DNA from: a virus
Taxonomy: Duplodnaviria; Heunggongvirae; Uroviricota; Caudoviricetes
DNA: 64,000 nt
Direction: 5' to 3' (one strand)
Virus record (IMG/VR): IMGVR_UViG_3300042484_000872
Location: 48,338 to 112,337 of that record
Every line of letters starts with the position of its first letter. Positions within the stretch are counted from its first letter, which is position 1. Under the pieces are notes generated by a model. The model was given only the letters and a program-made list of their open reading frames with translations, searched no databases and was not told the DNA's origin. A program made the translations under genes and the position numbers. Positions 17,399-56,122 of the stretch are shown here, one piece after another.

Positions 17399-17424
17399 CC
17401 TCCTCCGAAGAGGAGAAGTTTTTT
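17399..17424. terminator. stem-loop CCTCCTC-cgaa-GAGGAG followed by TTTTTT; T-rich flank on the minus strand too
   Basis: Lies between the portal stop (17423) and the scaffold start (17280). Possible attenuator or bidirectional terminator. Confidence 0.3.
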
Positions 17425-20008
17425 AACCTTTTTTGTTATTTCTGCCTTTAGCGTTCTCTTTTGCAACAGCAAGATCGTTTGCCATATTCTCTCTAGCCAC
17501 TTGTAGTTTCTCTTTTTCTACAGACATTTTATCGCTAGCTTGTTTATTCTTAGATTGAATATCAGCCATCTTTAATCCATAATCTTTTGTAGCTGTATCT
17601 TGATCGTGAGCTAACCTACTCATTTCCATTACATCAGGAATAGCATTTGCATTTACATCTTCTGATTCAACATTACCAAATCCTGTAGCTTGTATAATAG
17701 CAATCTTCTCTTTAGATAGTCTATCAAGTTCTTTTTGGTAATCATCATGAGCCAATTGCTCTTGGTGTTGTTGGATGAGGAACTGTTGTTGAGCTTGTGC
17801 TTGTTGTTGTTGAGCTTCTTGCTGTTGTTGAGCAAGTTGTTGTTGTTGCTCTTGTTGAGCAATTTGTCTATCTCTAAGATCTTTAAATACCTTCTTAAGT
17901 TCTCTTTGAGACTTAGTAGAATACAATTCTATTACATCATAAAGCGTGCCACCATTTTGAATAATAGCTTGAGAAAGTTGTCTAAGTTCATTAAACATTT
18001 GTGTATCTTCTGGTCTGTTTGTTAAGAACACTTTTAAGTCACGAAATTTAAGATCTGACCCATTTACTTGTACAAATGCAGATTGTCCCTCAGAGGTCAC
18101 ATATGAAAGCGTAGACTGAGGTTTTGATGATTCTACATAAAGAGCAGCATCTATAATACTTTGATACAGCTGTCCAAGCACATACTCGTGAGCTACAAAA
18201 AGAGGCTCTGTTTGAGAGTAACTCTGCTGCATCGCAGTATTAGTTCCTGTTGCACTTTCAGAAGCAGATACACTTCCCATACGTTGTTTAGACATACCTA
18301 CAAGTTCCCAGCATTCAAGTTTCACTTGCTGAGCTAATGTATATCTAGATTGTATCTCCTGTGTACGTGTAAGATCAAGAGCTGTAAATTGATTAAATGA
18401 ACTAGGACTCTTTAGATTCTCAGGACTATCATCAATAAATACCACTCCTCTGTTACGTGCTTCCATTTCCCATATATCAAGAGCATCTTGTGCATCTCCA
18501 TCTTTAGGAATAGGAATGTGTCTTAATGACATAAGCTGAACCTTACCCACTTCTTTCTCAAGTAGTTTGTATAATTGGTTCATACATACATTATAAATTA
18601 CTTGGAAAGGTTTCATAAGATCCACTAAGCTTTTTGCTTCTGTATTCTTCACCTCAAATGTTGTACCTATAATAGGACAATAGTTTAATAACTTAAATGG
18701 TTTGATATGATAGATATCTGGACCAATCTTTGTTCCTTGATACCATTCATTAATCCATCCCCATTCTAATGATTGTTGTGTAGGTATAGTACCTGATTTA
18801 TATGATTCATCAACAAGTGTAGATTGCTCATTACCCATTTCATCTATATAAATTAACTTACCAATTTTCTTTTTAGATATCCAATAGCTTCTTACAACAA
18901 CATACTTATATCCAAATGAGCTTACATTATTAGTAAGACCTAAGAAATCTTTTAGTCCATCATTGTTTTCTTTCATCTCTGATTCAATGATCATACGTGT
19001 CTGTAGAACAAGTGGATCAAATGTATCATACATTACAGAGTCTTGTCCTGGAACAGCATCTGGATTACCAAGGTTTGATTCTCTAACATTAATCAATCCG
19101 TAATCTTGTAAAGATGATCTAAGGTGATCTATTTCTTCTTTTGTAAGATCTGGTATAGATTCAATAATCTCAGATAATTCCATAACTTGCACAGTACCAG
19201 CAGCATATGCTCCTTGAGCTCTACCTGTAGGATCTGATATGTATTTTCTATCTGGTGTACTTAAGAACCATGTGTTCTTTGGATTAGCTACTTCAACATT
19301 AAATCCAAGTTTAGAATTGTCTTCATATATATGATAGAATTCTCTAGCAGATATTAACATATCTCTAAATGCATCCTCACTCTTTTCTTTAATATTAAAC
19401 TCAGCTTTCTGACATGTAAGAACATGGTTGGCCCATTTCTCAGCTATAGATGTATAGCTATCTAACTCATCCTTAACCTGTTCCATTGTCATTTGTTGCA
19501 ATTGCTCTGGATCAATTTCTTCTCCTTGCATTGCAGCTTTTTCTGTCAACTGTTGTTTAACTTGATTGATTACATATTCTTGTAACGTATCTGTTTTGAA
19601 CTGAAGCTCTTCTGCTTTACTATCATCATCAAAAGCTTTCACTCTAAATGTATCAGGTCTCTTTGATATTTCACCAACGAGCTCATTAACAGGAGTGGTG
19701 ATGATTGAATACATCTTTACATAAGCAGGAAGAGCTAAGTCTCCTGTAAGTACATCTGTAAAGCTTCTTACCTCTGGTTCTTGATAGAAATCTTCCATAC
19801 GAAGAATTCCTTTCATAAGATCGTAATTAGGAACAAAGGTGTCTCTGTTCTTTATATACTCAGCATATGCTTTATTGGAGAAATAATCCATCGTATTTTT
19901 AATCCAACTCTCATCTTGTTTTTCCTTATCTGTTTTGAATTGATCAGGAAAGATGTTTAAGTATGCATACCTAATAGTAGCATCTTTTGTATATCTAATT
20001 ATTGCCAT
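17423..20008 (-). CDS. putative portal protein (Gln-rich coiled-coil C-terminus)
   Basis: 861-aa ORF immediately downstream of TerL. C-terminal QQEQQQQLAQQQQEAQQQQAQAQQQ tract. Assigned by gene order. Confidence 0.5.
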   Translation of the reverse strand: MAIIRYTKDATIRYAYLNIFPDQFKTDKEKQDESWIKNTMDYFSNKAYAEYIKNRDTFVPNYDLMKGILRMEDFYQEPEVRSFTDVLTGDLALPAYVKMYSIITTPVNELVGEISKRPDTFRVKAFDDDSKAEELQFKTDTLQEYVINQVKQQLTEKAAMQGEEIDPEQLQQMTMEQVKDELDSYTSIAEKWANHVLTCQKAEFNIKEKSEDAFRDMLISAREFYHIYEDNSKLGFNVEVANPKNTWFLSTPDRKYISDPTGRAQGAYAAGTVQVMELSEIIESIPDLTKEEIDHLRSSLQDYGLINVRESNLGNPDAVPGQDSVMYDTFDPLVLQTRMIIESEMKENNDGLKDFLGLTNNVSSFGYKYVVVRSYWISKKKIGKLIYIDEMGNEQSTLVDESYKSGTIPTQQSLEWGWINEWYQGTKIGPDIYHIKPFKLLNYCPIIGTTFEVKNTEAKSLVDLMKPFQVIYNVCMNQLYKLLEKEVGKVQLMSLRHIPIPKDGDAQDALDIWEMEARNRGVVFIDDSPENLKSPSSFNQFTALDLTRTQEIQSRYTLAQQVKLECWELVGMSKQRMGSVSASESATGTNTAMQQSYSQTEPLFVAHEYVLGQLYQSIIDAALYVESSKPQSTLSYVTSEGQSAFVQVNGSDLKFRDLKVFLTNRPEDTQMFNELRQLSQAIIQNGGTLYDVIELYSTKSQRELKKVFKDLRDRQIAQQEQQQQLAQQQQEAQQQQAQAQQQFLIQQHQEQLAHDDYQKELDRLSKEKIAIIQATGFGNVESEDVNANAIPDVMEMSRLAHDQDTATKDYGLKMADIQSKNKQASDKMSVEKEKLQVARENMANDLAVAKENAKGRNNKKG

Positions 20009-22665: not shown

Positions 22666-22691
22666 AATGTAGTTGGTCTTTATTATTATTA

Positions 22692-23519: not shown

Positions 23520-23523
23520 AATA

Positions 23524-25437: not shown

Positions 25438-25440
25438 TGA

Positions 25441-25464
25441 AAAGGCTCTAACGAGCCTTTTTTT
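25441..25464 (+). terminator. rho-independent terminator AAAGGCTC-taac-GAGCCTTT + T7
   Basis: 8-bp perfect stem and T-run read directly after the stop at 25437. Confidence 0.6.
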
Positions 25465-25467
25465 ACG

Positions 25468-25817: not shown

Positions 25818-26021
25818 ATGAAGACAATAGCAGAACAAGTGGTAGCATCAATGAACAATCAAGCAATAGATGTTCTATATAATAGATTAGAACTATTAGA
25901 AGATGATTTTATTAATGGTCTTATATCATATATAGATTATTCTTTTTCTAAAGATGATATTGTTAATGATATACATTGTATTCTTTCTGAATATTTATGT
26001 CCAATTGATTTATACATATAA
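25818..26021 (+). CDS. hypothetical protein
   Basis: 67-aa ORF. Confidence 0.45.
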   Translation: MKTIAEQVVASMNNQAIDVLYNRLELLEDDFINGLISYIDYSFSKDDIVNDIHCILSEYLCPIDLYI

Positions 26022-28736: not shown

Positions 28737-28764
28737 AGAGAGCTGTAATGGCTCTCTTTTATAT
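28737..28764 (+). terminator. intrinsic terminator AGAGAGC-tgtaatg-GCTCTCT + TTTTAT
   Basis: 7-bp stem read directly; the track's ATG at 28748 lies inside the loop. Confidence 0.5.
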
Positions 28765-28771
28765 CAAAGCT

Positions 28772-30088
28772 ATGAGTAAATATAGATTTAAGACAGAACA
28801 AGAGTTTAAATATGATGATTTTTGGAATGATGAATATGAATGCCCAGATAACTGGTCTGAAGAAGGTGATATGAATGGTTATATGGGACAAGATGTTCCT
28901 GATAAATTCATTAAACTAATTGAGAAAGGTCATTCATTTACTTATGATAATTGGTTATTCCGAGCAAACAATTGTATCATCAAAGAAATAGAAGTAGTAA
29001 ACGTAGAAGAAGTATTAGAACAAATTAAATTAAATAATTCCTTAATAACAAAAGAAAAAATGAAAGCAACAACAGTAAAGAAATCAGCAAAAGCAAATCC
29101 AGTAGCAGAGAAGTTCGTATTTATGGACAAAACAGTTAACATTCTAAACGTAGGATTCCAAACATGTAAGAATGTTGTATTATATGGTCCAGGAGGACAT
29201 GGTAAATCAGAAATGACACTTGATTTTCTAAAAGCAAAAGGTATTGAACCTTATGTTATTACAATGGGTACAGGTATGACTACAGACAGATTGTTTGGTG
29301 GTCTTGATATACCTATGTTTGAAAAGACAGGTAAAATAGAATATCTTGTAGAGAATTCATTTATGAATCATCCTTTTGTTATATTCGAAGAGATGTTTGA
29401 TGCTCCTGATTTCATCTTAGAACAATTAAAGGATATATTATCAAGTGGTACATTCAGAAATGGCACACAGATATTTCCTATTGAAACTAAGTTCATCATT
29501 TGTTGTACAAATAGAACTCGTGATGAATTCTCAAAGAATATGTCTTTGAAAGCATTGATGGAGAGATTTCCTCTTGAATTGAATGTTATCTGGGATAACT
29601 ATACAGAGATCAGCTACAATAAATTACTAGAGAGTAAGTTTGGTGTAGATAATGTAGATCCAGTGATTCCATATTTGTTACAAGAGTATGCTAAGAATGG
29701 TATTACAATTAGTCCACGTGTTGCTGTAACAGCATATCAAGTGTATGACCAATGTGGACCAGAATCATTAAGCTTTATTGCTGAGTTCTCTAAGAAACCA
29801 TCATTGATAGCTGAAGCTATTAAGAAGTTTGAGGCTACAATTAAGTTTAGAGATTTATCTGCATCTCTTACATTCAGTATTGAAACTCTAACTCATTTAC
29901 CATTGGTATCTAGAGATGATGAGAAGATGTACAAAGATGCTATTGTTGATCTTAACAAGCAATTGACAGACATCAAAGGATTAGCAGTGAGTGATGATAT
30001 TGCACAAATACATTCACAATTAGTAAAAGCTGCTACACAAGCTAAAGAGAAGTTTACTAAGAACCTACAAATTGCTTCATTCATATAA
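28772..30088 (+). CDS. MoxR-like AAA+ ATPase
   Basis: Walker A GPGGHGKS, Walker B-like VIFEEMFDA, sensor-1 CCTNRT. Start moved from 28748 (inside a hairpin loop) to the ATG at 28772 (MSKYRF...). Confidence 0.6.
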   Translation: MSKYRFKTEQEFKYDDFWNDEYECPDNWSEEGDMNGYMGQDVPDKFIKLIEKGHSFTYDNWLFRANNCIIKEIEVVNVEEVLEQIKLNNSLITKEKMKATTVKKSAKANPVAEKFVFMDKTVNILNVGFQTCKNVVLYGPGGHGKSEMTLDFLKAKGIEPYVITMGTGMTTDRLFGGLDIPMFEKTGKIEYLVENSFMNHPFVIFEEMFDAPDFILEQLKDILSSGTFRNGTQIFPIETKFIICCTNRTRDEFSKNMSLKALMERFPLELNVIWDNYTEISYNKLLESKFGVDNVDPVIPYLLQEYAKNGITISPRVAVTAYQVYDQCGPESLSFIAEFSKKPSLIAEAIKKFEATIKFRDLSASLTFSIETLTHLPLVSRDDEKMYKDAIVDLNKQLTDIKGLAVSDDIAQIHSQLVKAATQAKEKFTKNLQIASFI

Positions 30089-31713: not shown

Positions 31714-31896
31714 ATGAAGTATCTAATAAGTATAGTCTTTACGTTCTTATCTGTATTAGCCTTTATGAAACTATTGTTTCTATTGAATAAGGGCAATACT
31801 GTTGCAAATGTTTTTGCTATAGTAGGTATATTCTTATTGGGATATATAATTGCAAGAACAAAGTTATTTACACAATTAAAATCAAAGAAAAAATGA
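31714..31896 (+). CDS. small membrane protein
   Basis: 60 aa, hydrophobic, overlaps the lipoprotein start by 4 nt. Confidence 0.3.
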   Translation: MKYLISIVFTFLSVLAFMKLLFLLNKGNTVANVFAIVGIFLLGYIIARTKLFTQLKSKKK

Positions 31897-32738
31897 AAAA
31901 AGTAGTATTATTAGGAGCATTAGTTGCTATGTTTGCAACATCATGTACAACAGCTGACTCAAGTGAAGTGGCATTAGTGGTAGATCAAATTGGAAATGAT
32001 AAGGGAATTCCAAACATTCAAATGGAATCAGGATTCATATTCTATTTCCCACCAACACAAGATGTATACACCTATCCAACATCTGTACAACATAAAGTGT
32101 GGAGTGCAGACAATCAAGAAGGATCAGAAACAGATGAGCACATTGATGTAACATCATCAGATGGAGCTACATTTGGTCTTGATGTATCTATAAACTTACA
32201 ATTACAAAGAGCTAAGGCATCAGAGTTGTTTATAAAATACAGAGTGGACATGGATGAGTTGATACATACAAGAGTAAGAACTATTGTTAGAAAAGAATTA
32301 TTAGATAATGCTGTTAACTTTGCATCAGATAGTCTTTTACAACATAGAAATATATATGAGGCCAATGTAACTAAGACATTAACATTATCATTAGAGAAAG
32401 AAGGATTCACATTGAATAACATTGCTGTATTAAAGATGGCATTACCATCATCATACAAGAAAGCTATTGAAAGAAAGATTGCTGTGTTACAAGAAACAGC
32501 AACTATCATCTCTCAGACTAAACAAGCTGAACAAACAGCATTGAAGAAAGTGGCATTAGCTAAGGGTAATTACGAAGCAGCACAATATGATGCTAAGACA
32601 AAAGAAATCTTATCACAACCTAAGCTTCTTGAATTATACAGAGCAGAAACAGAAAGAGTATGGGCAAATAAAGGCAGATCTCCATATGGTTCTAATAATG
32701 TATTTGGTTCTGCATCTGGAATTCTTTTAAATAGATAA
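31893..32738 (+). CDS. lipoprotein, SPFH/band-7-like
   Basis: Signal peptide with lipobox MKKVVLLGALVAMFATSC. The rest has prohibitin/HflC-like helical segments (weak, by eye). Confidence 0.5.
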   Translation: MKKVVLLGALVAMFATSCTTADSSEVALVVDQIGNDKGIPNIQMESGFIFYFPPTQDVYTYPTSVQHKVWSADNQEGSETDEHIDVTSSDGATFGLDVSINLQLQRAKASELFIKYRVDMDELIHTRVRTIVRKELLDNAVNFASDSLLQHRNIYEANVTKTLTLSLEKEGFTLNNIAVLKMALPSSYKKAIERKIAVLQETATIISQTKQAEQTALKKVALAKGNYEAAQYDAKTKEILSQPKLLELYRAETERVWANKGRSPYGSNNVFGSASGILLNR

Positions 32739-33048
32739 TTGCACAGTGGTCCTACATCCACACACATTAAACTTGTAGGATTGGTCTCTGATGTTAGGGA
32801 ACACTTGTGAGTTGCAATGATAAAACTCTCAAACAGGCTAAACATTGAACCAGATAGTGCATGAGGCCCATGCTACGAGTAACTATCAAAGATACTATCA
32901 GTAATGGTAGTTGGATGTTATGATGAATGGTGCTCTCTATGACAATTTGCACATAGGAGCACACATTTATCTAATTCAATTTTAAGATTATTAATATAAA
33001 TGCTTGGTACTAATCATTTTTATTTGTACATTTGTAAAAAATATTATT

Positions 33049-33534
33049 ATGTGGAAACAAATAGAAGACTATGATTATGAAATAAATCCTGAAGGAATAG
33101 TAATGAGAATTTCAACTAAAAGAATTAAAAAATCTTTTAAAAGACCTGATGGATACATTGGTATTCAATTGTACAAATCTAAAACAGAGATTAAAAACTT
33201 TCAGTTACATAGATTAATAGCAATTGCATTTATTAATAATCCTGAAAACAAAGACATTATTAACCATAAAGATTCAAATAGAGAAAACAATTCTTTAAAT
33301 AATCTTGAATGGGTAACAAAAAAAGAAAATGACAAACATGCTTATGAATTTGGTAATGCTTCAAACAAAGGTTCTAAAAATGGTTTTTCTGTATTAACAG
33401 AAGAACAAGTATTGAAAATAAGAAAAAAAAGAGCAGAAAATAAACTAACTTATCAAAAATTAGCAGAGTTGTATAATGTTTCTTACGGTTGTATTGCAGG
33501 TATAATACAAAGAACAAATTGGAAACATATTTAA
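33049..33534 (+). CDS. HNH homing endonuclease (HNH_3 / NUMOD4-type)
   Basis: MWKQIEDYDYEINPEGIV... start context, HRLIAIAF, INHKDSNRENNSLNNLEWVTKKEN. Start moved to Met-16 of the track ORF. Confidence 0.6.
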   Translation: MWKQIEDYDYEINPEGIVMRISTKRIKKSFKRPDGYIGIQLYKSKTEIKNFQLHRLIAIAFINNPENKDIINHKDSNRENNSLNNLEWVTKKENDKHAYEFGNASNKGSKNGFSVLTEEQVLKIRKKRAENKLTYQKLAELYNVSYGCIAGIIQRTNWKHI

Positions 33535-34547: not shown

Positions 34548-35330
34548 ATGAAAGAAAAGTTTATACCTTATACAAAGAAAAAGTATTCTATTACATCTGA
34601 TGGATTAGTTTATTCTAACTATAAAAATACTAACATTGGTGGAAAGTTTTATGAAAAGAAACTTATCAGCAAATATCTACAACAAAATTGTGCTGTTCTT
34701 AATTTACAATTTGGTAAATGGTCCAAAACCAATAAATCAACAACTGTTTTTATGAATACATTAATGAAAGATATATTTAAATTAAAAAAACCAGATACAT
34801 TTCATATGTATGATTTAAGACCTAAGAATGGTAATGTGTTCGATAGTTCATTAGATAATCTAGAATGGAGAATTAGATCCACTTCTGATTTCAATTTCTA
34901 TCCTCAACCATATTATGATAAAAAAGGCAATATAACATCTAAACGTTGCTCACATTGTGGAGAGATACATGATATTAATCGATATGTATTACAGAGGCCT
35001 AAGAGACCAGATGAGAATAATACATATAAGAACAAATGTAAATCTTGTAGACATGATCAAGAATGGAAACTTATAAATTCAGATGATAAAAAACTTGCTA
35101 GATATAAAGAACAACAAAAAAGATATACAAATTCTGAAAAAGGAAAAGCTTATCATAGAGAATATGGAATAGTTTGGTCTAAAAAAGATTATGATAGAAT
35201 AGGTGATCATTATATAAGTAATTGCTTAAAAGTAACAAGAAAAGAATTAACACCAGAATTACGAGAAATATTTAAAAAGAAAATAACCTTAAAACGAAAA
35301 TTAGAAAATCATGGCAACAAAGAAAATTAA
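34548..35330 (+). CDS. HNH-like endonuclease with Zn-finger (HNH_3-like LDNLEW motif)
   Basis: EKFIPYTKKKYSITSDGLVYSNY (NUMOD4-like), FHMYDLRPKNGN...LDNLEWRI, CSHCGE...CKSC zinc finger. TCCTTAATAAC 9 nt upstream. Confidence 0.45.
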   Translation: MKEKFIPYTKKKYSITSDGLVYSNYKNTNIGGKFYEKKLISKYLQQNCAVLNLQFGKWSKTNKSTTVFMNTLMKDIFKLKKPDTFHMYDLRPKNGNVFDSSLDNLEWRIRSTSDFNFYPQPYYDKKGNITSKRCSHCGEIHDINRYVLQRPKRPDENNTYKNKCKSCRHDQEWKLINSDDKKLARYKEQQKRYTNSEKGKAYHREYGIVWSKKDYDRIGDHYISNCLKVTRKELTPELREIFKKKITLKRKLENHGNKEN

Positions 35331-39812: not shown

Positions 39813-40010
39813 ATGAAATTTATAAATTATTTAGTTAGGTGGATATCGAATAATCTTGCTATGCCTTTTTGGGTAGTAGGACATATTCATCTATCTATTA
39901 ACATCTATGAAGACATAGCAGAAATTCTTGCATCATTTGGTATGAATATCATTGTAGGAATAGGATTTTGGTTAGATTGGAGAGATCATAAAAAAACAAC
40001 AAGACAATGA
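39813..40010 (+). CDS. small membrane protein
   Basis: 65 aa, hydrophobic. Confidence 0.35.
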   Translation: MKFINYLVRWISNNLAMPFWVVGHIHLSINIYEDIAEILASFGMNIIVGIGFWLDWRDHKKTTRQ

Positions 40011-41968
40011 AAGAAGAAGTAATAATATATGACATAGAAACCATGCAAGAACTATTCTTAGTTGTATGTATGGTGCCTGGTAAAGCTGGTAAGAGCTTTC
40101 AAGTGTCTAAATGGAAGAATCAATTAGATAAATTCGTTAGATATACAGAAGAACATACTGATGCTTATTGGGTAGGATATAATAATCTACGCTTTGACAG
40201 TCAAGTTGTTGAATGGATCTTGAGAAACTACGATAAGTGGCATGAGTTAAGCAATTTAGAAATATGTGCAAGAATAGCACAGAAAGCTGCTGATGTTATA
40301 CATGATGCTAACTATGATGTATTCCCTGAGTACAGAGAGCATGAATTAAGCCTCAAACAATTAGATCTGTTCAAGATAAGCCATTTCGACAATAAAAATC
40401 GAATGGTGAGTCTTAAAAGACTAGAGTTTGAGATGGATCTTGAGAATATAGAAGAAATGCCTATACATCATACTAAAACTAATATGACAAAAGAAGAAGT
40501 GGAGATGACCATTGACTATTGTTATAATGATGTAGATGCAACTTATGAATTCTACAAGATAACTATGGGTGATACAGATCATCCACTGTATAAAGGGAAT
40601 AATCAAATAGAGCTGAGACAAGATATTGAAGCTGAATTTGGTATCCCTTGTATGAACTATTCAGACTCTAAGATAGGGGATGAAATGATTAAGAAGTATT
40701 ATTGTTCAGAGAAAGGAATTACATACAGAGAACTTCCTAAGAAAGGATATTTCAGAAAGAGCATTGATGTAAAGAATTGCATTGCTAAGTATGTAACATT
40801 TGAAACTCCACAACTAAAAGACTTCTTAAAGAAGATTAATAAAATGCAGCTTGGTCTGCAAGATGATTTCAAAGAGCATATAGATTTCTATGGAAATGTG
40901 TATTCTTTTATGAAAGGTGGTCTTCACACAGAGAATGGTCCTAAGATCTTCGAAGCTGATGAAGACTATGAGATAATCGATTGGGATGTGTCTAGTTATT
41001 ATCCTGCCATCATTATCAACAATGGTAAGTTTCCTGCCCATTTAGGTAAGGAATTCCTTCGGGGATACAAACAGATGTTTGATAAAAGATTGGAGCTTAA
41101 ACCCTTTGCAAAGAAGGATAAGAAGATTAAAGGAATTGTTGGAGCACTTAAACTTGCAGTTAACTCTGTATACGGTAAGTCATCTGATATGCAGAATTGG
41201 ATATATGATAGGCAGTTAACTATGTTCACCACAATTACTGGTGAGCTTAGCTTGATGATGCTTATTGAAAAATATGAAACCAATGGCATACATGTGATCT
41301 CTGCTAATACGGATGGTGTAACCATCAAGATTAAGAAAGACATGATTCCTTTGATGCATGAAATCAATGCATGGTGGTGTGACATTACTCAATATGAGTT
41401 GGAGAGAACAGACTATTCCAAGATTATCTTTAGTACAGTGAATGACTATTTAGCAATTATGACCAATGGAGAGATTAAGAAAAAAGGTGATTTCCTTACT
41501 GATTTTGAATTGCACAAGAACAAGTCAGCTAGAATTGTTCCCATTGCTCTTGAGCAGTATTTTGTTTATGGTGTGCCTGTGGAGCATACAATTCGTGCTC
41601 ACACTAATCTTTATGACTTCTGTTTAAGACAGAAAGCTAGTAGGAGTTTTCACTATGAAGGAACTAACAGATCCACAGGTAAGAAGACAGTGTATGATAA
41701 ACTCATACGGTATTATGTATCCAACGAAGGAGATAAGATCTTTAAGATTAAGAATCCAGAGTGTCAAACCAGAGCTGCTGCAATCAGTCAAGTAGAAGCT
41801 GGTGAGTGGGTATGTAAAGTTTGTAATTTCTTACCAAAAGGTAGTAAAGTTGATAATGTCAATTATGATTACTACATTGAAAAAGCTAACAGATTAGTCT
41901 TAAAGATTAAAACTGAAGGCAGAAGAGTAAAAACGGTATTTATACCTAATCAATTAAATTTATTTTAA
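40007..41968 (+). CDS. family-B DNA polymerase, compact (653 aa), with 3'-5' exonuclease motifs
   Basis: Exo I IYDIET, Exo II YNNLRFDS, Exo III YCYNDVDATY. Motif A DVSSYYPAII, motif B KLAVNSVYGKSS. Motif C is ISANTDGV, i.e. NTD in place of the canonical DTD. Motifs A and B resemble phi29-type polymerases. Confidence 0.65.
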   Translation: MKEEVIIYDIETMQELFLVVCMVPGKAGKSFQVSKWKNQLDKFVRYTEEHTDAYWVGYNNLRFDSQVVEWILRNYDKWHELSNLEICARIAQKAADVIHDANYDVFPEYREHELSLKQLDLFKISHFDNKNRMVSLKRLEFEMDLENIEEMPIHHTKTNMTKEEVEMTIDYCYNDVDATYEFYKITMGDTDHPLYKGNNQIELRQDIEAEFGIPCMNYSDSKIGDEMIKKYYCSEKGITYRELPKKGYFRKSIDVKNCIAKYVTFETPQLKDFLKKINKMQLGLQDDFKEHIDFYGNVYSFMKGGLHTENGPKIFEADEDYEIIDWDVSSYYPAIIINNGKFPAHLGKEFLRGYKQMFDKRLELKPFAKKDKKIKGIVGALKLAVNSVYGKSSDMQNWIYDRQLTMFTTITGELSLMMLIEKYETNGIHVISANTDGVTIKIKKDMIPLMHEINAWWCDITQYELERTDYSKIIFSTVNDYLAIMTNGEIKKKGDFLTDFELHKNKSARIVPIALEQYFVYGVPVEHTIRAHTNLYDFCLRQKASRSFHYEGTNRSTGKKTVYDKLIRYYVSNEGDKIFKIKNPECQTRAAAISQVEAGEWVCKVCNFLPKGSKVDNVNYDYYIEKANRLVLKIKTEGRRVKTVFIPNQLNLF

Positions 41969-43423: not shown

Positions 43424-44488
43424 ATGAGTTTTGAACTATTAAATGCAGAAGTTAACAAAGGCCTAGGTGATTTCAATAGAGGTATACCAATGGGCTTTGA
43501 TAGGCTTACTAGATATGTAGGTATTCGTAAGGGAATGTATTATTTGATAGGTGGTAACACAGGTTCAGGTAAGACATCTTTTATTGATGATGCATTTGTT
43601 CTTAATCCTGTTGATTGGGCTATGTCCAAAGAAGGAATAGCTTCAGGTATAAAGGTGAAGGTGTGGTATAGGTCCATGGAGAGAAGTAGAACATACAAGA
43701 TGGCCAAATGGGTATCTCGTAAAATATTTCTAGACCAGGGTATAATTATTCCTGTAGGTAAATTACTTGGCTGGAATGAGAAGATGACTAAAGATGAGCA
43801 TGATCTATTTTTATATTATAAAGATTATGTAGAACAGCTCAGTGAGATAGTCACCATCATAGATGGTCCAGAGAATCCTGTAGGTATAGCAAAAGAACTT
43901 AAAGCTTATGCTGAAGAGAATGGTGAGATACAGCAATTGGACAAATGGAATAAAATATATGTTCCTAATGATCCAACACAAATTACCATGGTTGTAGTAG
44001 ATCACATTGGTCTATTAAAAACAACAACAGCTCAACCAACTAAAAAGGATGCTATTGATAAGATGTCTGATGAACTCAGATATGCTAGAGATTTCTATGG
44101 CTACAGTCCTGTAGTGGTAAGTCAGTTCAACAGAAGCATTTCTAATCCATCTAGGATAAAGAATGGTGATGTAGAACCTCAGTTAGAAGATTTTGCAGAT
44201 AGCTCAAGCACACAGAATGATGCTGATGTAGTTATGGCCTTATTTGATCCTATGAGATATAAAGTGGCAGATCCTAGTGGATATGACCTAGATAAATTAA
44301 AAGATCAATTTGGTGCTAAGTATTTCAGAAGTGTAAGACTAATCAAGAATTCATACGGTGAAGATGATGTGAGAATTGGACTAGCATTCCTAGGTGAACT
44401 TGGTTTATTCAAGGAGCTACCTAGAAAGAAAGATATCACAGAAGCAGATTATGAATCAATTACAAATAAGAGTTTCTTTCTTAGATAA
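43424..44488 (+). CDS. DnaB-family (SF4) replicative helicase, C-terminal RecA-like domain only
   Basis: H1 GGNTGSGKTSFIDDAFVLN, H2 VVVDHIGLL, H3 VVVSQFNRS, H4 QNDADVVMALFD. Lacks the DnaB N-terminal domain (354 aa). Confidence 0.65.
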   Translation: MSFELLNAEVNKGLGDFNRGIPMGFDRLTRYVGIRKGMYYLIGGNTGSGKTSFIDDAFVLNPVDWAMSKEGIASGIKVKVWYRSMERSRTYKMAKWVSRKIFLDQGIIIPVGKLLGWNEKMTKDEHDLFLYYKDYVEQLSEIVTIIDGPENPVGIAKELKAYAEENGEIQQLDKWNKIYVPNDPTQITMVVVDHIGLLKTTTAQPTKKDAIDKMSDELRYARDFYGYSPVVVSQFNRSISNPSRIKNGDVEPQLEDFADSSSTQNDADVVMALFDPMRYKVADPSGYDLDKLKDQFGAKYFRSVRLIKNSYGEDDVRIGLAFLGELGLFKELPRKKDITEADYESITNKSFFLR

Positions 44489-44527: not shown

Positions 44528-45211
44528 ATGAAAACAACAAATTATTCAAAATTCCTATTCTCTAAAGAAAACAGAGAAATTAAAACAAAAACAGTCTTAG
44601 CAATTAAAGACTCAATGACTAAATTTGGATTTATTCCAGGTAGACCAGTATTAATTACAAAAGAATGGGTGATCATTGATGGTCAACACAGATTCTTAGC
44701 AGCTAAAGAACTTGGTATCTCAGTAGAGTTTGAAATTGTAGAAGGAAATTACATTGACAAAATGATTCTTTTAAATTCTACACAATCAAATTGGACTTTA
44801 GAAGATTACGTAAATTCATATGCACAACAGAATGTTGATTGCTACAGAAAGCTTTTGAAATTCAAAGATAAATATGAATTAAATCTTTCTTGCTCAATCG
44901 TTCTTTTATTTGGTTCAGGTGTAAAAACTGCTGATATTAGAAAAGGAGAAGTTCTTAAACAAAATCCTAATGCAGATCGAATGGCAGAATATGTTTTAAA
45001 CTGTAGTACAATATCTTACAACAAAGATCAAAAGTTTGTTAGAGCAATTGCAGCAGTGTATGATAAGTTAACAAGACCTCAATTGATAAAATTAAGATCA
45101 AGATTGATCGTTGTTCCAGCTTTATCTAATACAACTGACTTTGTTATAGCCTTTGAAAACATTATCAATAAAGGTAAAAGAGGAGATTACAAAGTGAAAT
45201 TAAGTAGATAA
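44528..45211 (+). CDS. ParB-like nuclease domain protein
   Basis: VIIDGQHRFLAAKELG matches the ParB/sulfiredoxin DGxHR motif. Confidence 0.6.
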   Translation: MKTTNYSKFLFSKENREIKTKTVLAIKDSMTKFGFIPGRPVLITKEWVIIDGQHRFLAAKELGISVEFEIVEGNYIDKMILLNSTQSNWTLEDYVNSYAQQNVDCYRKLLKFKDKYELNLSCSIVLLFGSGVKTADIRKGEVLKQNPNADRMAEYVLNCSTISYNKDQKFVRAIAAVYDKLTRPQLIKLRSRLIVVPALSNTTDFVIAFENIINKGKRGDYKVKLSR

Positions 45212-45340: not shown

Positions 45341-46153
45341 ATGTTATATCTTTGTCATATGAAAATAGATATAGCCCTTAGAAAAGTGACTGGTATATAT
45401 AAAATTACCAACACTATAAACAATAAATCATATGTAGGAAGTTCTGTTGATGTATATCAAAGAGGATGTATGTATAAGCACTTAATCAAAAGAAAGAAGT
45501 TACATAACAAACATTTACAGTCAGCTGTAGAGAAGTATGGATATGATAATTTTACATTTGAAGTCTTAGATAAGTGTGAAGAAGGTACATCTGTTTTTGA
45601 TTTGCATCAATTAGAACAATCTTACATAAACAAAATTAATCCTGAGTACAATAAAAGAACTGTTGTAGACACAAATCATTTACTTTCACATTCTCAAGAA
45701 ACTAAAGATAAAATATCTAATAGTTTGAAAGAATCTTTTAAGAATGGTAGTAAAGTTATCAATCGTATACAAGAACATAATATAAAAGTTAGTCTATTTG
45801 ATCTATCTGGAAATCATATTCAAGATTTTCCAGGATTAGCTCATTGTGCTGATTTTGTAGGAGTGAAGTATCAGAGCGTAACTTTTGCTATAAACAGTGA
45901 AAGAAGAAGAGTTAAGAATTACATAGTGCTACGTACAGAGGAATCTAATTTGGTAAAAGATTTTCTAAACATACCTAAATTAAATTATGCTAAAAAAGTT
46001 ACAGTTCTAGATATAATTACAAATGAGACATTACAATTTATTAATTGTAAACTGTGTGCAGAATTTATAAATTGTAAACCAACAACTGTAAAAAAATGTT
46101 ATGAGAATGGTAAAATTTGGAAAAACAAATACAAAATAATAAACTATGAGTAA
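45341..46153 (+). CDS. GIY-YIG homing endonuclease
   Basis: GIYKITNTINNKSYVGSS...R...KHLQSAVEKYG...FEVL...E. Alternative start at 45359. Inserted between the helicase fragment and the intact helicase gene. Confidence 0.65.
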   Translation: MLYLCHMKIDIALRKVTGIYKITNTINNKSYVGSSVDVYQRGCMYKHLIKRKKLHNKHLQSAVEKYGYDNFTFEVLDKCEEGTSVFDLHQLEQSYINKINPEYNKRTVVDTNHLLSHSQETKDKISNSLKESFKNGSKVINRIQEHNIKVSLFDLSGNHIQDFPGLAHCADFVGVKYQSVTFAINSERRRVKNYIVLRTEESNLVKDFLNIPKLNYAKKVTVLDIITNETLQFINCKLCAEFINCKPTTVKKCYENGKIWKNKYKIINYE

Positions 46154-47261
46154 AAGTTTAAGAGATATTAGACAAGCAGAATTTGCAAAAGCTTGGATAG
46201 ATAAAGGAAAGAAGGGTATAATTTACGCTTGTCCAAGGTTTGGCAAGATAAGAACTAGTATATTAATATTAAAACAACTTCCTAAAAAAAGTCTTAGTTA
46301 TACGAATGCAACAGTTTATCCTTCAGTATTGATTGCTTACCCAGATAATAAGATTAAAGAATCTTGGCAATCTGATTTTGATGATCTTGGATATGATGAT
46401 AGCAATGTCACATACACAACACATTTATCATTAAAGAAGTTAGTAGACAATGAGTATGATATTATTATTATAGATGAGATACATCTACTGAGTGAAGCTC
46501 AGATAGAAGCATGTCAAGATCTATTTAGTAACAATGCTTGTATACTAGGTCTCACTGGTACATTAGCCAGTGATACAGAAAGAACTCTCGAAGAGGAACT
46601 TGATTTACATGTTGTAGCTCACTATCCAATTGAAAAAGCGATTGAAGAAGGTGTTATTGTAGATTATGAGATACATGTTATTAAAGTGCCCCTTGACAAT
46701 CTTGTACACAATGATTATAAAGGAAAACTTAAAACAGAGAAGAAACACTATGATGGATTATCTTGGGTAATCAATAAACTTCAGAATAGTGGATCAGACA
46801 CTATGTTCATGCGTCTTGCAAGAATGAGACTTATTCAATCATCTTTAGCTAAAACTAATGCTACGAAAAAGCTATTAGCTAAACATAAAGATGAGAGAGT
46901 GTTAGTATTCTGTGGCACCACTGCTGTAGCAGATAGTCTTGGTATTCCTTCCTATCATAATAAGTCTAAAGAAAAGAGTATCTTTGAAGACTTTGCTGAA
47001 GGAGAAGGTAATCACCTAGCTGTTGTAAAGATTGGTAATACAGGAGTTACATATAAGCCTCTAGACAAAGTGATTATTAATTATTTCGATAGTAATGCAG
47101 AGAATCTCGCACAAAAAATAAATCGATGTATGGCTATGGAATATAACACTCCTGATAAGAAAGCCCACATATACATAGTGAGTTCTAATGAACCTGTAGA
47201 ATTGAAATGGTTACAGAAAGCTTTAGAATTCTTCGATAAAACCAAAATAAAATACATATAA
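46146..47261 (+). CDS. SF2 DExH-type helicase/ATPase
   Basis: Motif I-like ACPRFGKIRT, motif II IIIDEIH, motif III LTGTLASD. Confidence 0.5.
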   Translation: MSKSLRDIRQAEFAKAWIDKGKKGIIYACPRFGKIRTSILILKQLPKKSLSYTNATVYPSVLIAYPDNKIKESWQSDFDDLGYDDSNVTYTTHLSLKKLVDNEYDIIIIDEIHLLSEAQIEACQDLFSNNACILGLTGTLASDTERTLEEELDLHVVAHYPIEKAIEEGVIVDYEIHVIKVPLDNLVHNDYKGKLKTEKKHYDGLSWVINKLQNSGSDTMFMRLARMRLIQSSLAKTNATKKLLAKHKDERVLVFCGTTAVADSLGIPSYHNKSKEKSIFEDFAEGEGNHLAVVKIGNTGVTYKPLDKVIINYFDSNAENLAQKINRCMAMEYNTPDKKAHIYIVSSNEPVELKWLQKALEFFDKTKIKYI

Positions 47262-48908: not shown

Positions 48909-48940
48909 CCTCTATCAGAAATGATAGAGGTTTTTTATTT
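48909..48940 (+). terminator. intrinsic terminator CCTCTATCA-gaaa-TGATAGAGG + TTTTTTATTTT
   Basis: 9-bp perfect stem read directly; the track ATG 48921 lies in the loop. Confidence 0.5.
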
Positions 48941-48947
48941 TAAAGCT

Positions 48948-49952
48948 ATGAGTATACAAGGGAAAAAGAAAATAAATTTAACACCTGATAGCATACTGGA
49001 AAAGATATCTGAATATGATATCTATAAGATGTATATGCCACATCAGAACTGGAAGATTAATGTTGTTACTTATTCAGCCTTCAGAGATGAAAAACATCCA
49101 TCATTCATTATAGGATATAGAGGAGGAGCATTGAGATTTTATGATTTTACAGACTCTAGTAAAAAAGGTGGCTGTTTTGATTTTGTAATGATGCTATTCA
49201 ATATATCATTGCGTGAAGCATTATTGATGCTTGATAGAGATTTTGATTTAGGGATTGTTAATGCATCCTCTACAAGGAATTATGAGAGGATTGTTTCTGA
49301 TTATGCACAACCAACAGCTACATCTAAACGTGAATTCTTTATTCAAGTGAAGACAAGAAAGTTCACACATGAAGAACTAGCATATTGGAATATGTATTAT
49401 CAAGACATAGATGATCTTAGAGCTAATAATGTGTATTCAATAGACACTGTATATCTAAATAAAAAGAAGTTTCCTATATTGGATTCAGAATTGAGATTTG
49501 GTTATCTATATGAAGGACATTGGAAGATTTATAGACCATTTGCAGACAAGAAGAATAAGTGGATGCCAAATAATGTGCCTATTACTATGATGGATGGATT
49601 AGAAGACATCAAAGATTGTGATGTAGCATTCATTAATAAGAGTAAGAAGGATTACATGGTGATGAAAAAGATTTACCCATGTTGCTGTGCAGTGCAGAAT
49701 GAAGGTATGGGATGTTTCTCAGAAGAGAATGTAGAATACCTAAAAGATAATTCTGATAGACAAATCTTAAGCTTCGATAGTGATGAGACTGGTGTAAAGA
49801 ATTCTCAATTGATAACTGATAAGTTTGATTTTGAGTATTGTAATGTACCAAAGCTCTATCTAGGAGAAGGGATAAAAGATTGGGCTGATCTTGCCAGAAT
49901 ACATGGATTAAAAGTTATAGAAGAATATTTAACACAAAGAGAAATTATATGA
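48948..49952 (+). CDS. DNA primase (TOPRIM domain)
   Basis: EG motif (CAVQNEGMG) and DxD motif (SFDSDETG) of TOPRIM. Start moved to the ATG at 48948 (MSIQGKKK). Confidence 0.55.
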   Translation: MSIQGKKKINLTPDSILEKISEYDIYKMYMPHQNWKINVVTYSAFRDEKHPSFIIGYRGGALRFYDFTDSSKKGGCFDFVMMLFNISLREALLMLDRDFDLGIVNASSTRNYERIVSDYAQPTATSKREFFIQVKTRKFTHEELAYWNMYYQDIDDLRANNVYSIDTVYLNKKKFPILDSELRFGYLYEGHWKIYRPFADKKNKWMPNNVPITMMDGLEDIKDCDVAFINKSKKDYMVMKKIYPCCCAVQNEGMGCFSEENVEYLKDNSDRQILSFDSDETGVKNSQLITDKFDFEYCNVPKLYLGEGIKDWADLARIHGLKVIEEYLTQREII

Positions 49953-52218: not shown

Positions 52219-54516
52219 ATGATATTAGAAAAACAGAAAGAAGCAAATGTCCTAGAAGAAGGACAATCACAAGAATCAATTGGAATGTCCCTAGACTTAG
52301 ATTCTGCTCAGATATTGATGCAGATGTTAAGTAAGAATTTATATTCTGATGATATAGGCTCTGCTATCAGAGAATGTGCAAGTAATGCATTAGATAGCCA
52401 TAGAAGAGCTGGAGTGGACACTCCTATAATTGTTTCATTTAAAGCATCTGCAGCTAACAACTATGAGTTTTGTGTAGAAGATTTTGGTATAGGCTTAGAT
52501 GCTGATGATGTAAGAAACATTATTAGTAAATATGGTAAATCTACCAAGAGAAATTCTACAACAGAATTAGGTATGATGGGTCTTGGTTTCAAGGCTCCTC
52601 TAGCATATTCTAGTAGTTTCTATTTTGTATGTAGAAAAGATGGAATGGAACGCAAGTATATGATGTATGAAGGGGAAGATGCTAATACGATTGATCTTTT
52701 ATATGAAAAAGAAACAACAGAAGCTAATGGTGTAAAAATCATTATTCCTGTTAAGTATGCTGATAGATGGCAGTTTCACAAAAAGATTAAAGAACAACTA
52801 TGTTATTTCGAAAGTGTATACTTTGATGTACCAGAAGATTCTAAGATTACTAATGATTTTGTAATCTCTAGACATCCACACTTTCAATTCTCTGAAATGT
52901 CTACAGATCAAAACTTACACATCTGTTTAGACAATGTGTATTATCCTTTAGATTTTGAGAAGCTTGGTATTGGTAGAATTCAATTTCCTATAGGTCTTAG
53001 ATTTTCATTGAGTGATGGAATTTATCCTACACCAAATAGAGAATCTTTAAGATATACACAAGAGGCTAAGCAGATCATTATGGATAAACTTGGTCAAGTG
53101 GGAGATTATTTTGTTACTAAGTATAACGAAGCTATCACTGAGGGAAGTGACATTAAATCTATGGTGAATCACCTTGAGAAGAATGGACATTTTGTTGAAA
53201 TGGGTAATGGTACTAAATCTAAGATTGATGAGTTCATTAAATTCTCCACTGTAAAACCTATTGTTCCAGAATTAGAAGGAGTAGAACTATTGAACTTTCC
53301 TTCTTTGTACAAAACCTATAAGCAAAACATTCTTGTAGATCCATTTCCTGTTAGATATTCATTGAAATATAAAAGAATGTCTGATGCAGATAAAGGTTAT
53401 GTATGGGGATACAACTTAGAGAGTGTGTGTAATGGAGAATGTAATGTTTGGGTGTACACTGATAGAATTCCTCAAATCAAGAAAGATTTCCTAAGAGCTA
53501 CATGTAAAGAAACTCAAAGTAATTTTCTTGTTAAGAGAGGTACACCTATGAAATTAGGAATTCCTGCTAAGTTTGATCTTAAAACTTATTATCATTTATT
53601 GAAACTTGATAGATTTCCAAAAGAACAATGGAGAGATGCTATTAAAGAGTATCAACACATTATGTCTATGATTGAAGAAAACTTCACAGACCTTGATGAG
53701 TTAGAAGTTCCTCAAGATTTCATTGATAGCAAGAAGAAAGCAAAAATTAGTAAAGCTGGCTTAGCTAGTACTAAAAGACTGAAGCTGCAGGGAGAAATAG
53801 TTTGCAAGAAAGGTGTTGACTTGATGAGATGGAATGATGGAAGAAAGTGTAAATTTGATTCTCAAATCTATAAGTTAGAAGATCTTCATAAGGGTAAAGG
53901 ATTAAAGGTGTATACTCATCATGAGGACTTCTTGAAACTTGATCCTTTATATGGAATGATGGGAAAACAAAAGATGGAAGTGATTACATTCTCTAGTAGA
54001 GAACTAAAGATTGTAGAACAACTAAACATACACAATTTAATATCTTACGAGAAGTTTATGGAAGGTAAAACAGCACCATTCAAAAGAATGATTACATCAA
54101 TATTGATTCATGAGATGATAAGTACTTATAGAAGTACATTTGATCATGCAGATGCTTTGAAATATGTATCTACTGACTTATTTAATAAATTAGATAGATT
54201 AGCTACATACAGAAAAGACAATTATGTAGAAACAAATGATACATTAAGAAAAGCTATGTTAGAAGTGGCAACAGAACATAAATTGTTTGATCCACAAATC
54301 TATACAGAGTATTTAGAGATGTTAGACATATTTGAGAAGCTTACATTCTTGAATCCTGTATGTGCAAGATTAGGTTACACTCGTGAAGATGATCCAATGA
54401 TCCCAGTAATGACTGATTTGTTCAAATATTACAAGCATAGAGTAGATTTAAAGCACTATAATATCAAAATCAATGATGAAGTACTTACAGAAGAAACAAT
54501 AGATCAATTAACATAA
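52219..54516 (+). CDS. GHKL-family ATPase (Bergerat fold; Hsp90/MORC/MutL-like N-terminus), 765 aa
   Basis: N-box IRECASNALDS (ExxxNAxD), G1 VEDFGIGLD, G2 GMMGLGFKA. No TOPRIM motif seen downstream. Confidence 0.5.
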   Translation: MILEKQKEANVLEEGQSQESIGMSLDLDSAQILMQMLSKNLYSDDIGSAIRECASNALDSHRRAGVDTPIIVSFKASAANNYEFCVEDFGIGLDADDVRNIISKYGKSTKRNSTTELGMMGLGFKAPLAYSSSFYFVCRKDGMERKYMMYEGEDANTIDLLYEKETTEANGVKIIIPVKYADRWQFHKKIKEQLCYFESVYFDVPEDSKITNDFVISRHPHFQFSEMSTDQNLHICLDNVYYPLDFEKLGIGRIQFPIGLRFSLSDGIYPTPNRESLRYTQEAKQIIMDKLGQVGDYFVTKYNEAITEGSDIKSMVNHLEKNGHFVEMGNGTKSKIDEFIKFSTVKPIVPELEGVELLNFPSLYKTYKQNILVDPFPVRYSLKYKRMSDADKGYVWGYNLESVCNGECNVWVYTDRIPQIKKDFLRATCKETQSNFLVKRGTPMKLGIPAKFDLKTYYHLLKLDRFPKEQWRDAIKEYQHIMSMIEENFTDLDELEVPQDFIDSKKKAKISKAGLASTKRLKLQGEIVCKKGVDLMRWNDGRKCKFDSQIYKLEDLHKGKGLKVYTHHEDFLKLDPLYGMMGKQKMEVITFSSRELKIVEQLNIHNLISYEKFMEGKTAPFKRMITSILIHEMISTYRSTFDHADALKYVSTDLFNKLDRLATYRKDNYVETNDTLRKAMLEVATEHKLFDPQIYTEYLEMLDIFEKLTFLNPVCARLGYTREDDPMIPVMTDLFKYYKHRVDLKHYNIKINDEVLTEETIDQLT

Positions 54517-54521
54517 TTAAC

Positions 54522-54548
54522 AGGGGGACATTCGTGTCCCTCTCTTTA
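54522..54548 (+). terminator. stem-loop AGGGGGACA-ttcg-TGTCCCTCT followed by a T-rich tract
   Basis: Read directly, after the stop at 54516. Confidence 0.45.
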
Positions 54549-54574
54549 ACAATTAACAATTAAATTAAATCAAA

Positions 54575-56122
54575 ATGGAACACAAATTTTTAAGTCTTGA
54601 CTGGTTCAAGCAAACAGCAGAATCTGCAATTACTAAAGTGGTGGCTAACAAGTTAGAGAACTTGATGGAACAAGAAATTCCTGTAGAACAACAATGTCAT
54701 GCTAAACATGAGAAACCATATTTTGCTATTAAATTGGTAAATGACACACTTACAGTGGTGTTAACAGATGGAACTATTATCAGTAAGCCTGGTGCAACTG
54801 AGAATGATTATCATGCTGTTCAAGCAGCAAGAGATATATATGAAATACATGCTATTGTAAGTTCTCAAGAAGTGAAACAAGATGTAGCAGATATGAAAGC
54901 TGAAGCAGCAAGAATACAAGCTCTTCAACAAGGAGTAGAACTACTTGGAAAACTTCCTGATTTTGTTGTAAAAGGTAATTCAGTTTATCTTTCAGATACA
55001 ACTAGAAGTATGCCTCAATTGCTTGTGGAGAAATTCATTGAGATAGTTGATAGAGTGGGAGAAGAACCACAAACAGATGGTAGATCTTTTCATGAAGCTC
55101 TTAACGAGAATGATGATTATTTAGCTCATAAGAACTTCTTCATGTGGTGTTGTTTAAATCCAAGAGCTGAAGTGGCTAATGAACTATATAGATTCTTAAC
55201 AGAGAATAGTTTCAAAATCACTAAACAAGGATTCTTTGTAGCTCTTAGAAATGTTGTAACATTGCATGGATCTCCAGAACTGGTTCACTTCGTAAGTAAT
55301 GCTTACAACAAGGTGAAAGCTGTATGGAAGAAGAATCCAGATAACTACACTATTTTCTTAGAAAATGGAGAATACAAACTTGTACATGATGATAAGTTGT
55401 TTGAAGATATAATTGTTGAGTCTACAATATGTCCAGATTGTGTTGGTGAGGGTGGATACTATGAATCTTCAGAACACATGCATTATGATGATAATTGGTT
55501 TGATTGTGATACTTGTGGTGGATCAGGAGAAGTGGAAGAGTATGAATGGGAAGAAACAGTTCCTGTAGACCATGGTCAAAAGATTGGTGGATTAACAGCA
55601 TTGTATTTAGATCTTCCTAATAGAGAAGAGAATAGATTCACTGATAACTGGAGTAAAACATTTGATATCCGTATAGGACAAGTGGTAAGTATGCCTAAAG
55701 AAGAATGTAACTGGAGTACACAAGATTGTGCTACAGCAGGTCTTCACTTTGCTGGTTACACAGCTCCTTATGTTCTTTGTGGTGATACTACAGTTATGAC
55801 TCTTCATAATCCTATGAAGGTTGTAGGTATTGGTGCAGTGAAAGGTAGATGTTGGGAATATCTTCCATTCATGTTGACTACTGTTGCTGAAGCAGATCAA
55901 ATTATGAATGATAGAAGCTTTGACTTCTTACAATTAGATGAGCAATATGCTATCCGTGAATTAGAATCTCTTGCAGAGAAAGCTAAAGAAGGATTTGCAG
56001 CTGAGTCTAGAAAGTATGAATTCAACATGCCATCTATATCAGCTCATGAAATTAATGCTATTGTTGGTAGTCTTAGTGAAATGAAAGCCAAAATAACTAA
56101 TCGTGTGATTACGATTAATTAA
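54575..56122 (+). CDS. hypothetical protein with internal Cys cluster (CPDCVGEG...CDTCGGSG)
   Basis: 515-aa ORF immediately downstream of the GHKL ATPase. Confidence 0.55.
   Translation: MEHKFLSLDWFKQTAESAITKVVANKLENLMEQEIPVEQQCHAKHEKPYFAIKLVNDTLTVVLTDGTIISKPGATENDYHAVQAARDIYEIHAIVSSQEVKQDVADMKAEAARIQALQQGVELLGKLPDFVVKGNSVYLSDTTRSMPQLLVEKFIEIVDRVGEEPQTDGRSFHEALNENDDYLAHKNFFMWCCLNPRAEVANELYRFLTENSFKITKQGFFVALRNVVTLHGSPELVHFVSNAYNKVKAVWKKNPDNYTIFLENGEYKLVHDDKLFEDIIVESTICPDCVGEGGYYESSEHMHYDDNWFDCDTCGGSGEVEEYEWEETVPVDHGQKIGGLTALYLDLPNREENRFTDNWSKTFDIRIGQVVSMPKEECNWSTQDCATAGLHFAGYTAPYVLCGDTTVMTLHNPMKVVGIGAVKGRCWEYLPFMLTTVAEADQIMNDRSFDFLQLDEQYAIRELESLAEKAKEGFAAESRKYEFNMPSISAHEINAIVGSLSEMKAKITNRVITIN

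Follow-up and report, generated by a model that had tools for sequence, protein, structure and literature searches.

A family-B DNA polymerase (PolB) of 653 residues is encoded on the plus strand at positions 40007 to 41968 of a 64,000-nucleotide stretch of an uncultured virus of the class Caudoviricetes (IMG/VR record IMGVR_UViG_3300042484_000872, positions 48,338 to 112,337 of that record; this whole stretch is referred to below as the window). Homology, fold, motif conservation, motif spacing and gene context together indicate that this protein is very probably the replicative, proofreading PolB of a marine crAss-like tailed phage and belongs to the group of PolBs that carry the signature NTDG in motif C. 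The motif "NTDG" was reported to characterize the "PolIIphages", a subgroup of RNA-primed PolBs (Kazlauskas & Venclovas 2011, PMC3201878), and the "crAss-like" PolB group was subsequently placed in the EpsilonN-like clade as one of its divergent members, set apart by "profound" differences in motif C and in the KxY motif (Kazlauskas et al. 2020, PMC7544198). The 2011 "PolIIphages" are equivalent to the 2020 "crAss-like" group. Because the N-T-D of motif C is invariant across the relatives and has been published as a hallmark of the group, it is a group signature and not a substitution special to this phage; the polymerase is thus a fresh metagenomic member of an already described PolB group. 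An original prediction, made from the sequence alone, described the gene as a compact PolB with an intact exonuclease and N-T-D in place of the D-T-D of motif C. The sequence observations in that prediction are confirmed, whereas its interpretation stands only in part: neither the assignment to the phi29 type nor the doubt cast on activity is upheld.

Homology, motifs and fold

The polymerase matches PHROG 1252, annotated as "DNA polymerase" (E=7e-142), and tblastn identified relatives in 918 phage records, nearly all of which are annotated as DNA polymerase. These include Salmonella phage 9NA, the Rheinheimera Barba phages, JenP1 and JenP2, Pantoea phage Vid5, and Pseudomonas phage PaMx42, along with Vibrio phages, Flavobacterium phages, and the crAss-like phages cr272_1 and cr107_1. 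For 9NA and cr272_1, 96 to 97% of the query was covered, with E values between 1e-57 and 1e-61. A search run without a word index yielded 4,598 cluster representatives (clustering at 50% identity) at E<=1e-3. The nearest of these representatives is 58% identical to the query, and the polymerases of isolated phages reach 35% identity at most in tblastn. Closer relatives, at 87 to 95% identity, come from many marine and other metagenome assemblies, on contigs of up to ~117 kb. When the 10 kb surrounding the gene were compared with phage genomes by megablast, nothing matched, and therefore the phage has no close cultured relative.

The members of the PolIIphages/crAss-like group, such as 9NA gp65, cr272_1 gp11 and the Barba phage polymerases, share with this protein the NTDG motif C, the replacement of KxY by VNxY, full-length homology (28 to 36% identity over >90% of the length), the same PHROG, and a similar neighborhood with helicase and recombination genes. 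Unlike most of these relatives, the polymerase contains an 11-residue loop (residues 187 to 197), and its lineage is marine and uncultured. In one crAss-like phage of the group, Cellulophaga phage phi14:2, the homologous polymerase is represented by two proteins, of 316 and 252 residues (BFVD S0A384 and R9ZZZ9); the gene may be split or interrupted in that phage.

To place the motifs, 126 diverse full-length representatives with 30 to 58% identity to the query were aligned, and all conservation counts given as fractions of 126 refer to this set. Every motif quoted in the original prediction (Exo I to III, A, B and C) was found in the 653-residue protein, in the following arrangement.

40007..41968, plus strand: family-B DNA polymerase gene, crAss-like/"PolIIphages" NTDG group, 653 residues
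40031..40039, plus strand: Exo I (D9-I-E11); D9 125/126, E11 125/126
40181..40198, plus strand: Exo II (N59-NLRF-D64); N59 124/126, D64 126/126
40517..40531, plus strand: Exo III (Y171-CYN-D175); Y171 126/126, D175 125/126
40985..41017, plus strand: motif A (D327-VSSYYPAIII); D327 126/126, Y332 124/126, P333 122/126
41150..41185, plus strand: motif B in the fingers (K382-LAVNSVYGKSS; KLAVNSVYGKSS); K382 126/126, N386 122/126, G390 126/126
41297..41320, plus strand: motif C (I431-SANTDGV); N434 126/126, T435 124/126, D436 126/126, G437 124/126
41438..41449, plus strand: V478-N479-D-Y481, the replacement of KxY in this PolB group; V 117/126, N 120/126, Y 126/126
41477..41488, plus strand: K491-K-K493-G494, conserved basic motif where palm and thumb meet; K491 123/126, K493 125/126, G494 123/126

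The start codon of the polymerase open reading frame (ORF) overlaps the stop codon of the upstream ORF (ATGA). The DEDD 3'-5' exonuclease is intact, as had been claimed: its motifs (D9/E11, N59/D64 and Y171/D175) are conserved in at least 98% of the 126 relatives, Exo II aligns with the NGDNFD motif of archaeal PolB in the family profile, and Exo III continues as D175-V-D177. Motifs A (DVSSYYPA, from residue 327) and B (KLAVNSVYG, from residue 382) follow in this order with the spacing of a PolB. The former was aligned with LDFRSLYPSIII of archaeal PolB and with LDYKSLYPSII of Escherichia coli Pol II, and the latter with KILANSFYG and KIIMNAFYG in the archaeal PolB and Pol II alignments. In motif C, the two exceptions at T435 are both Ser. 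Further downstream, V478-N479-x-Y481 lies opposite tKKkY (KKKY) of archaeal PolB, and K491-K-K493-G494 lies opposite ITTRG.

The compactness of the protein, which was also recognized originally, is explained at the N terminus. The N-terminal domain of cellular and T4-type PolBs (~130 to 150 residues) has no counterpart here, hence the small size: Exo I begins at residue 9, and position 38 of the family profile aligns with residue 183 of archaeal PolB, which leaves ~130 to 145 N-terminal residues unmatched.

The fold supports the same assignment. Compared with the PDB, the family profile matched archaeal PolB at E ~6e-17, and NCBIfam gave a faint Pol II match (15 bits against a cut-off of 570). 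An AlphaFold2 model built from the 126-sequence alignment reached a mean predicted local distance difference test score (pLDDT) of 96.1 and a predicted template modeling score of 0.93, and it contains the exonuclease, palm, fingers and thumb of the PolB fold. The top Foldseek matches in the PDB were family-B polymerases only, namely, archaeal PolBs, Pol alpha and E. coli Pol II, with E values from 1e-17 to 1e-14; in BFVD, a library of viral structures, the best matches were DNA polymerases of phages, including crAss-like ones. All six classical motifs align with those of archaeal PolBs (9degN, KOD, Tgo, Pfu and Pyrobaculum) and RB69 gp43, at 12 to 17% identity in structural alignments. Unlike the present protein, these enzymes have DTD in motif C, KxY, and an N-terminal domain, which in the archaeal enzymes holds the uracil-sensing pocket, and they bind PCNA- or gp45-type clamps via different C-terminal motifs.

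The identity of the phage is indicated by its structural genes. The P22-like portal protein (17423..20008, minus strand) finds its best matches in Crassvirales and in phages of Flavobacterium, Cellulophaga and Bacteroides, and so does the major head protein (14413-15975, minus strand), in both cases at 25 to 27% identity. Given these best matches of portal and head, the window is assigned to a marine crAss-like phage.

The asparagine of motif C

Motif C is encoded by the codons gct aat acg gat ggt, and the reading ISANTDGV is correct, with aat acg gat at 41306-41314: N434 is encoded by aat at 41306-41308 and D436 by gat at 41312-41314. D436 is the sole Asp of the motif, and the first position of the D-T-D typical of other PolBs is occupied by Asn, a deviation that marks the subgroup without placing it outside family B (PMC3201878). 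The assignment would fail if the true motif C were a canonical D-T-D elsewhere in the protein, but this is not the case. The only literal D-T-D of the polymerase is located within the 11-residue loop mentioned above:

40571..40579, plus strand: D-T-D at residues 189-191, a decoy within a variable loop and distinct from motif C

This loop is a gap in 77/126 representatives, and residue 189 varies among D, E, Q and K even among close relatives. Conversely, the family profile places aNTDG opposite aDTDG of 9degN and KOD, and profile-profile alignment places residues 434-437 opposite gDTDS of Pol II. The D-T-D at 189-191, in a poorly conserved loop, is therefore ruled out as motif C.

The Asn is a stable feature of the family. 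It is present in 126/126 distant representatives and in 120/120 close metagenomic relatives, of which 119 have NTDG and 1 has NTHG, and these close relatives were drawn from independent ENA, JGI, NCBI, Logan and Tara assemblies. A four-way alignment shows that 9NA gp65, cr272_1 gp11 and Vibrio phage 1.084.O all have the same NTDG as the query. A change from GAT to AAT needs one base only, and the codon could for that reason be taken for an assembly or sequencing error or for a private mutation of this genome; given the conservation of the Asn in both the close relatives, from independent assemblies, and the distant ones, the probability of such an explanation is vanishingly small. The single NTHG variant (P0035, a singleton relative that is 91% identical to the query) reads ISANTHGV, with the second Asp changed to His and the Asn kept; it probably reflects a sequencing error or a defective genome.

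What the Asn would mean for catalysis can be gauged from the structurally characterized PolBs. In RB69 gp43, the metals are bound by D411 of motif A and by D623, the second Asp of the DTDS at 621-624 (PMC3564110). D327, the predicted metal-ligand Asp of motif A, and D436 align with RB69 D411 and D623, respectively, and both are invariant (126/126). N434 occupies the position of the first Asp, which is not a ligand in RB69, and judging by this alignment, an Asn there need not impair catalysis. There are also precedents among other PolBs: piPolBs lack the first Asp of motif C and yet polymerize efficiently (PMC7544198). The polymerase would employ the usual two-metal catalysis with D327 and D436, the second acidic position of motif C, as ligands. 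The incoming deoxynucleoside triphosphate would be bound in the fingers by K382, N386 and Y389 of motif B, and errors would be removed by the N-terminal DEDD exonuclease (D9, E11, D64, Y171 and D175). On this view, the amide of N434 is no defect but has been fixed by selection throughout the group. We infer that the polymerase is active.

A contrary interpretation is that the Asn marks an inactivated or crippled polymerase, that is, a pseudo-enzyme, a structural subunit of the replisome comparable to the C-terminal half of Pol epsilon, or a weak translesion enzyme comparable to archaeal PolB2. Most PolBs have two Asp in motif C, no enzymology of the NTDG group was found in the open-access literature, and archaeal PolB2, which has a single Asp, polymerizes only weakly and was for a long time regarded as inactive (PMC7544198). 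Archaeal B2, however, lacks Exo III and does not conserve Exo I (PMC7544198). Here, D9, E11, D64, Y171, D175, Y332, K382, N386 and G390 are all invariant or nearly so among the 126 representatives, which is unlike an inactivated paralogue: several catalytic residues are typically lost in such proteins, whereas those of both active sites are kept here across 30 to 58% identity, including the residues that match the RB69 metal ligands. The high activity of piPolBs despite the missing first Asp (PMC7544198) argues in the same direction. Moreover, the NTDG PolB is the annotated polymerase of many lytic phages, among them 9NA, Barba and crAss-like phages, and PolBs of this type swap in situ with PolA as the replicase (PMC11348598). 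An inactive or crippled enzyme is thus very unlikely, and the doubt about activity that had been attached to the Asn is dispelled to the extent that the Asn is a published, group-wide hallmark accompanied by invariant D327 and D436. In a paper on a related enzyme, the HelPrimPolB replicase GP55, none of the terms for motif C or catalytic residues that were looked for occurred.

Primer type, replicase role and the C-terminal tail

The original prediction compared the polymerase with the phi29-type, protein-primed PolBs and, noting that a primase and a DnaB-like helicase are encoded as well, considered an RNA-primed yet phi29-like small PolB unusual. Both replication genes are indeed present:

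43424..44488, plus strand: DnaB-like replicative helicase (Pfam DnaB_C, E=2e-15; PHROG 19)
48921..49952, plus strand: DNA primase (PHROG 12622 "DNA primase", E=2e-34)

There are genuine likenesses to the phi29 polymerase: the exonuclease is located at the extreme N terminus, with Exo I at residue 9 as in phi29, the protein is small (653 residues compared with 572), and the universal PolB motifs are alike in both. However, the phi29 polymerase carries the TPR1 and TPR2 insertions, the presence of which had been proposed to be checked by alignment, and examination of the motif spacing revealed neither. Motifs A and B are 55 residues apart, compared with 134 in phi29, where TPR1 occupies this interval, and ~74 in E. 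coli Pol II; motifs B and C are 52 residues apart, compared with 73 in phi29 (the TPR2 interval) and 52 in Pol II, with the position of motif B in Pol II taken from the hhalign alignment. This spacing leaves no room for either insertion. The similarity searches agree: with the family profile, hhalign gave a probability of 96.6% for Pol II (E=5e-10, over palm and fingers) and of 5.9% for phi29, in the exonuclease region only, and none of 67 members of the family matched Pfam DNA_pol_B_2. In profile and fold searches, archaeal PolB, RB69, Pol epsilon and E. coli Pol II all rank above phi29, the structural score of which is lower. The context differs, too, in that no terminal-protein-like match was found among the larger neighboring ORFs that were scanned, and the primase and helicase genes lie close to the polymerase gene. 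Finally, the NTDG group is classed as RNA-primed in the literature (PMC3201878). It is highly improbable that a phi29-type, protein-primed enzyme merely happens to occur alongside a primase and a helicase in this genome. Because the enzyme is instead most probably of the RNA/DNA-primed type, its location beside a primase and a helicase is expected, and the supposedly unusual combination disappears along with the likeness to phi29. The DnaB-like helicase would unwind the DNA, and the phage primase would supply the primers that the polymerase extends.

Along with the helicase and the primase, genes for a Sak4-like ATPase, an SF2 helicase and RecA are located on the same strand as the polymerase gene, and these neighbors suit a primer-extending replicase. 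In Barbavirus, Nonanavirus, Casjensviridae and Crassvirales, PolBs of this kind are a replicase that swaps in situ with PolA (Yutin et al. 2024, PMC11348598). The closest named bacterial enzyme by profile is nevertheless Pol II, a cellular repair and restart polymerase and not a phage replicase. E. coli Pol II (PDB 3K57/3K59) has a similar palm and fingers, an equal spacing of motifs B and C and, as described below, a C-terminal clamp motif in common with the phage protein; it differs in having DTDS, KxY and an N-terminal domain of ~150 residues, so that its Exo I Asp is D156 rather than D9. The phage protein could accordingly be an accessory, Pol II-like repair polymerase, with another polymerase replicating the genome, ~53 kb of which is outside the window; barbaviruses encode an extra, divergent PolA beside this PolB (PMC11348598). 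Against this, the gene belongs to the core replication module, together with those for the helicase, the primase and recombination proteins; the scanned ORFs of the window yielded no second polymerase; and where Crassvirales and other clades have this PolB, it stands in for PolA as their only replicase (PMC11348598). A purely accessory role is unlikely, and a replicative one remains strongly preferred.

The protein ends in ...FIPNQLNLF*, which contains a candidate clamp-binding motif:

41951..41965, plus strand: candidate beta-sliding-clamp-binding motif, Q649-LNLF653

E. coli Pol II ends in ...TGQLGLF*, with QLxLF likewise at the very C terminus. Of the clamp-binding sequences, the consensus QLxLF has the highest affinity, and the C-terminal peptide of Pol II has been crystallized with the beta clamp, to which it binds in the micromolar range (PMC11139829). 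A motif of the form Q-[LIVMF]-x-[LIVMF]-[FLWY] is exactly terminal in 54/128 diverse representatives and lies within the last 15 residues in 7 more, and QL[N/D/T]LF is present in 120/120 close relatives. In the AlphaFold2 model, the last ~15 residues have a pLDDT of 55 to 59, as expected of a flexible tail. No sliding clamp was detected among the scanned ORFs of the window. The motif suggests that the polymerase uses the beta clamp of the host, to which the flexible QLNLF tail would tether it for processivity. No prior statement on the use of QLxLF by phage PolBs was found in the open-access literature, the coverage of which is incomplete.

Several observations weigh against the assignment as a replicative, clamp-using member of the NTDG group and have to be set beside the evidence for it. 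The protein is remote from textbook PolBs: as a single sequence it had no Pfam match at E<=1 and no useful match in the PDB, the link to PolBs being reached through profiles only, and among the 67 members searched against Pfam, PF00136 (DNA_pol_B) was matched by 4 at E<=0.01 and DNA_pol_B_exo2 by 11. About half of the representatives lack a recognizable terminal QLxLF, so clamp use would not be family-wide. The open-access literature yielded neither a biochemical nor a structural study of an NTDG-group polymerase. Lastly, the window covers 64 kb of a genome of ~117 kb, as judged from contig sizes, and a second polymerase or a phage clamp could lie in the remainder.

A more far-reaching proposal joins the active site with the tail. 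The invariant Asn together with NxY in place of KxY might represent a clade-wide re-wiring of the active site, which could affect the handling of a third or "A-site" metal, the tolerance of Mn2+, or the selectivity for sugar or base; joined with the lack of the N-terminal domain and a possible dependence on a host beta clamp hijacked through the Pol II-like QLxLF tail, the group may constitute a class of compact, clamp-parasitic replicases distinct from both the T4-type and the phi29-type phage PolBs. We consider this proposal conceivable but, on present evidence, doubtful.

Neighboring genes and significance of the group

The region around the polymerase gene contains several further genes of note. 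A GIY-YIG/NUMOD1 homing-endonuclease-like ORF (45341-46153) is located directly upstream of the SF2 helicase gene (46146-47261), the start of which it overlaps, and two HNH endonuclease ORFs lie further upstream (33004-33534 and 34548-35330); the three look like mobile endonucleases inside the replication region. Between the DnaB-like helicase and the GIY-YIG ORF, a protein with a ParB-like nuclease/partition domain is encoded (PHROG 12305, 44528-45211). Homologs of T4 rIIA (765 residues, with a GHKL ATPase domain) and rIIB (515 residues) at 52219-56122 are unexpected neighbors for a crAss-like replication module. A MoxR-type AAA+ ATPase (28748-30088) is followed by a 463-residue ORF without matches and then by an SPFH/Band-7 protein (31893-32738), a trio that is unusual in a phage and could be a host-takeover or anti-defense module. 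Finally, the GC and AT skews change sign at ~24 kb (region ~22000-26000), where the structural genes of the minus strand give way to the replication and early genes of the plus strand; this change is in keeping with divergent transcription units and perhaps with a replication origin.

For annotation, the consequence is that the N-T-D of motif C is not to be flagged as a sign of inactivity, pseudogenization or sequencing error, and that the gene is due to be annotated as a replicative PolB of the crAss-like/NTDG group. This group is very large, with ~4,600 clusters at 50% identity and members in 918 phage genomes, crAss-like ones included, and it is very abundant in ocean and gut samples. What the conserved Asn does and whether the host beta clamp is used are questions of modest but reasonable experimental interest.

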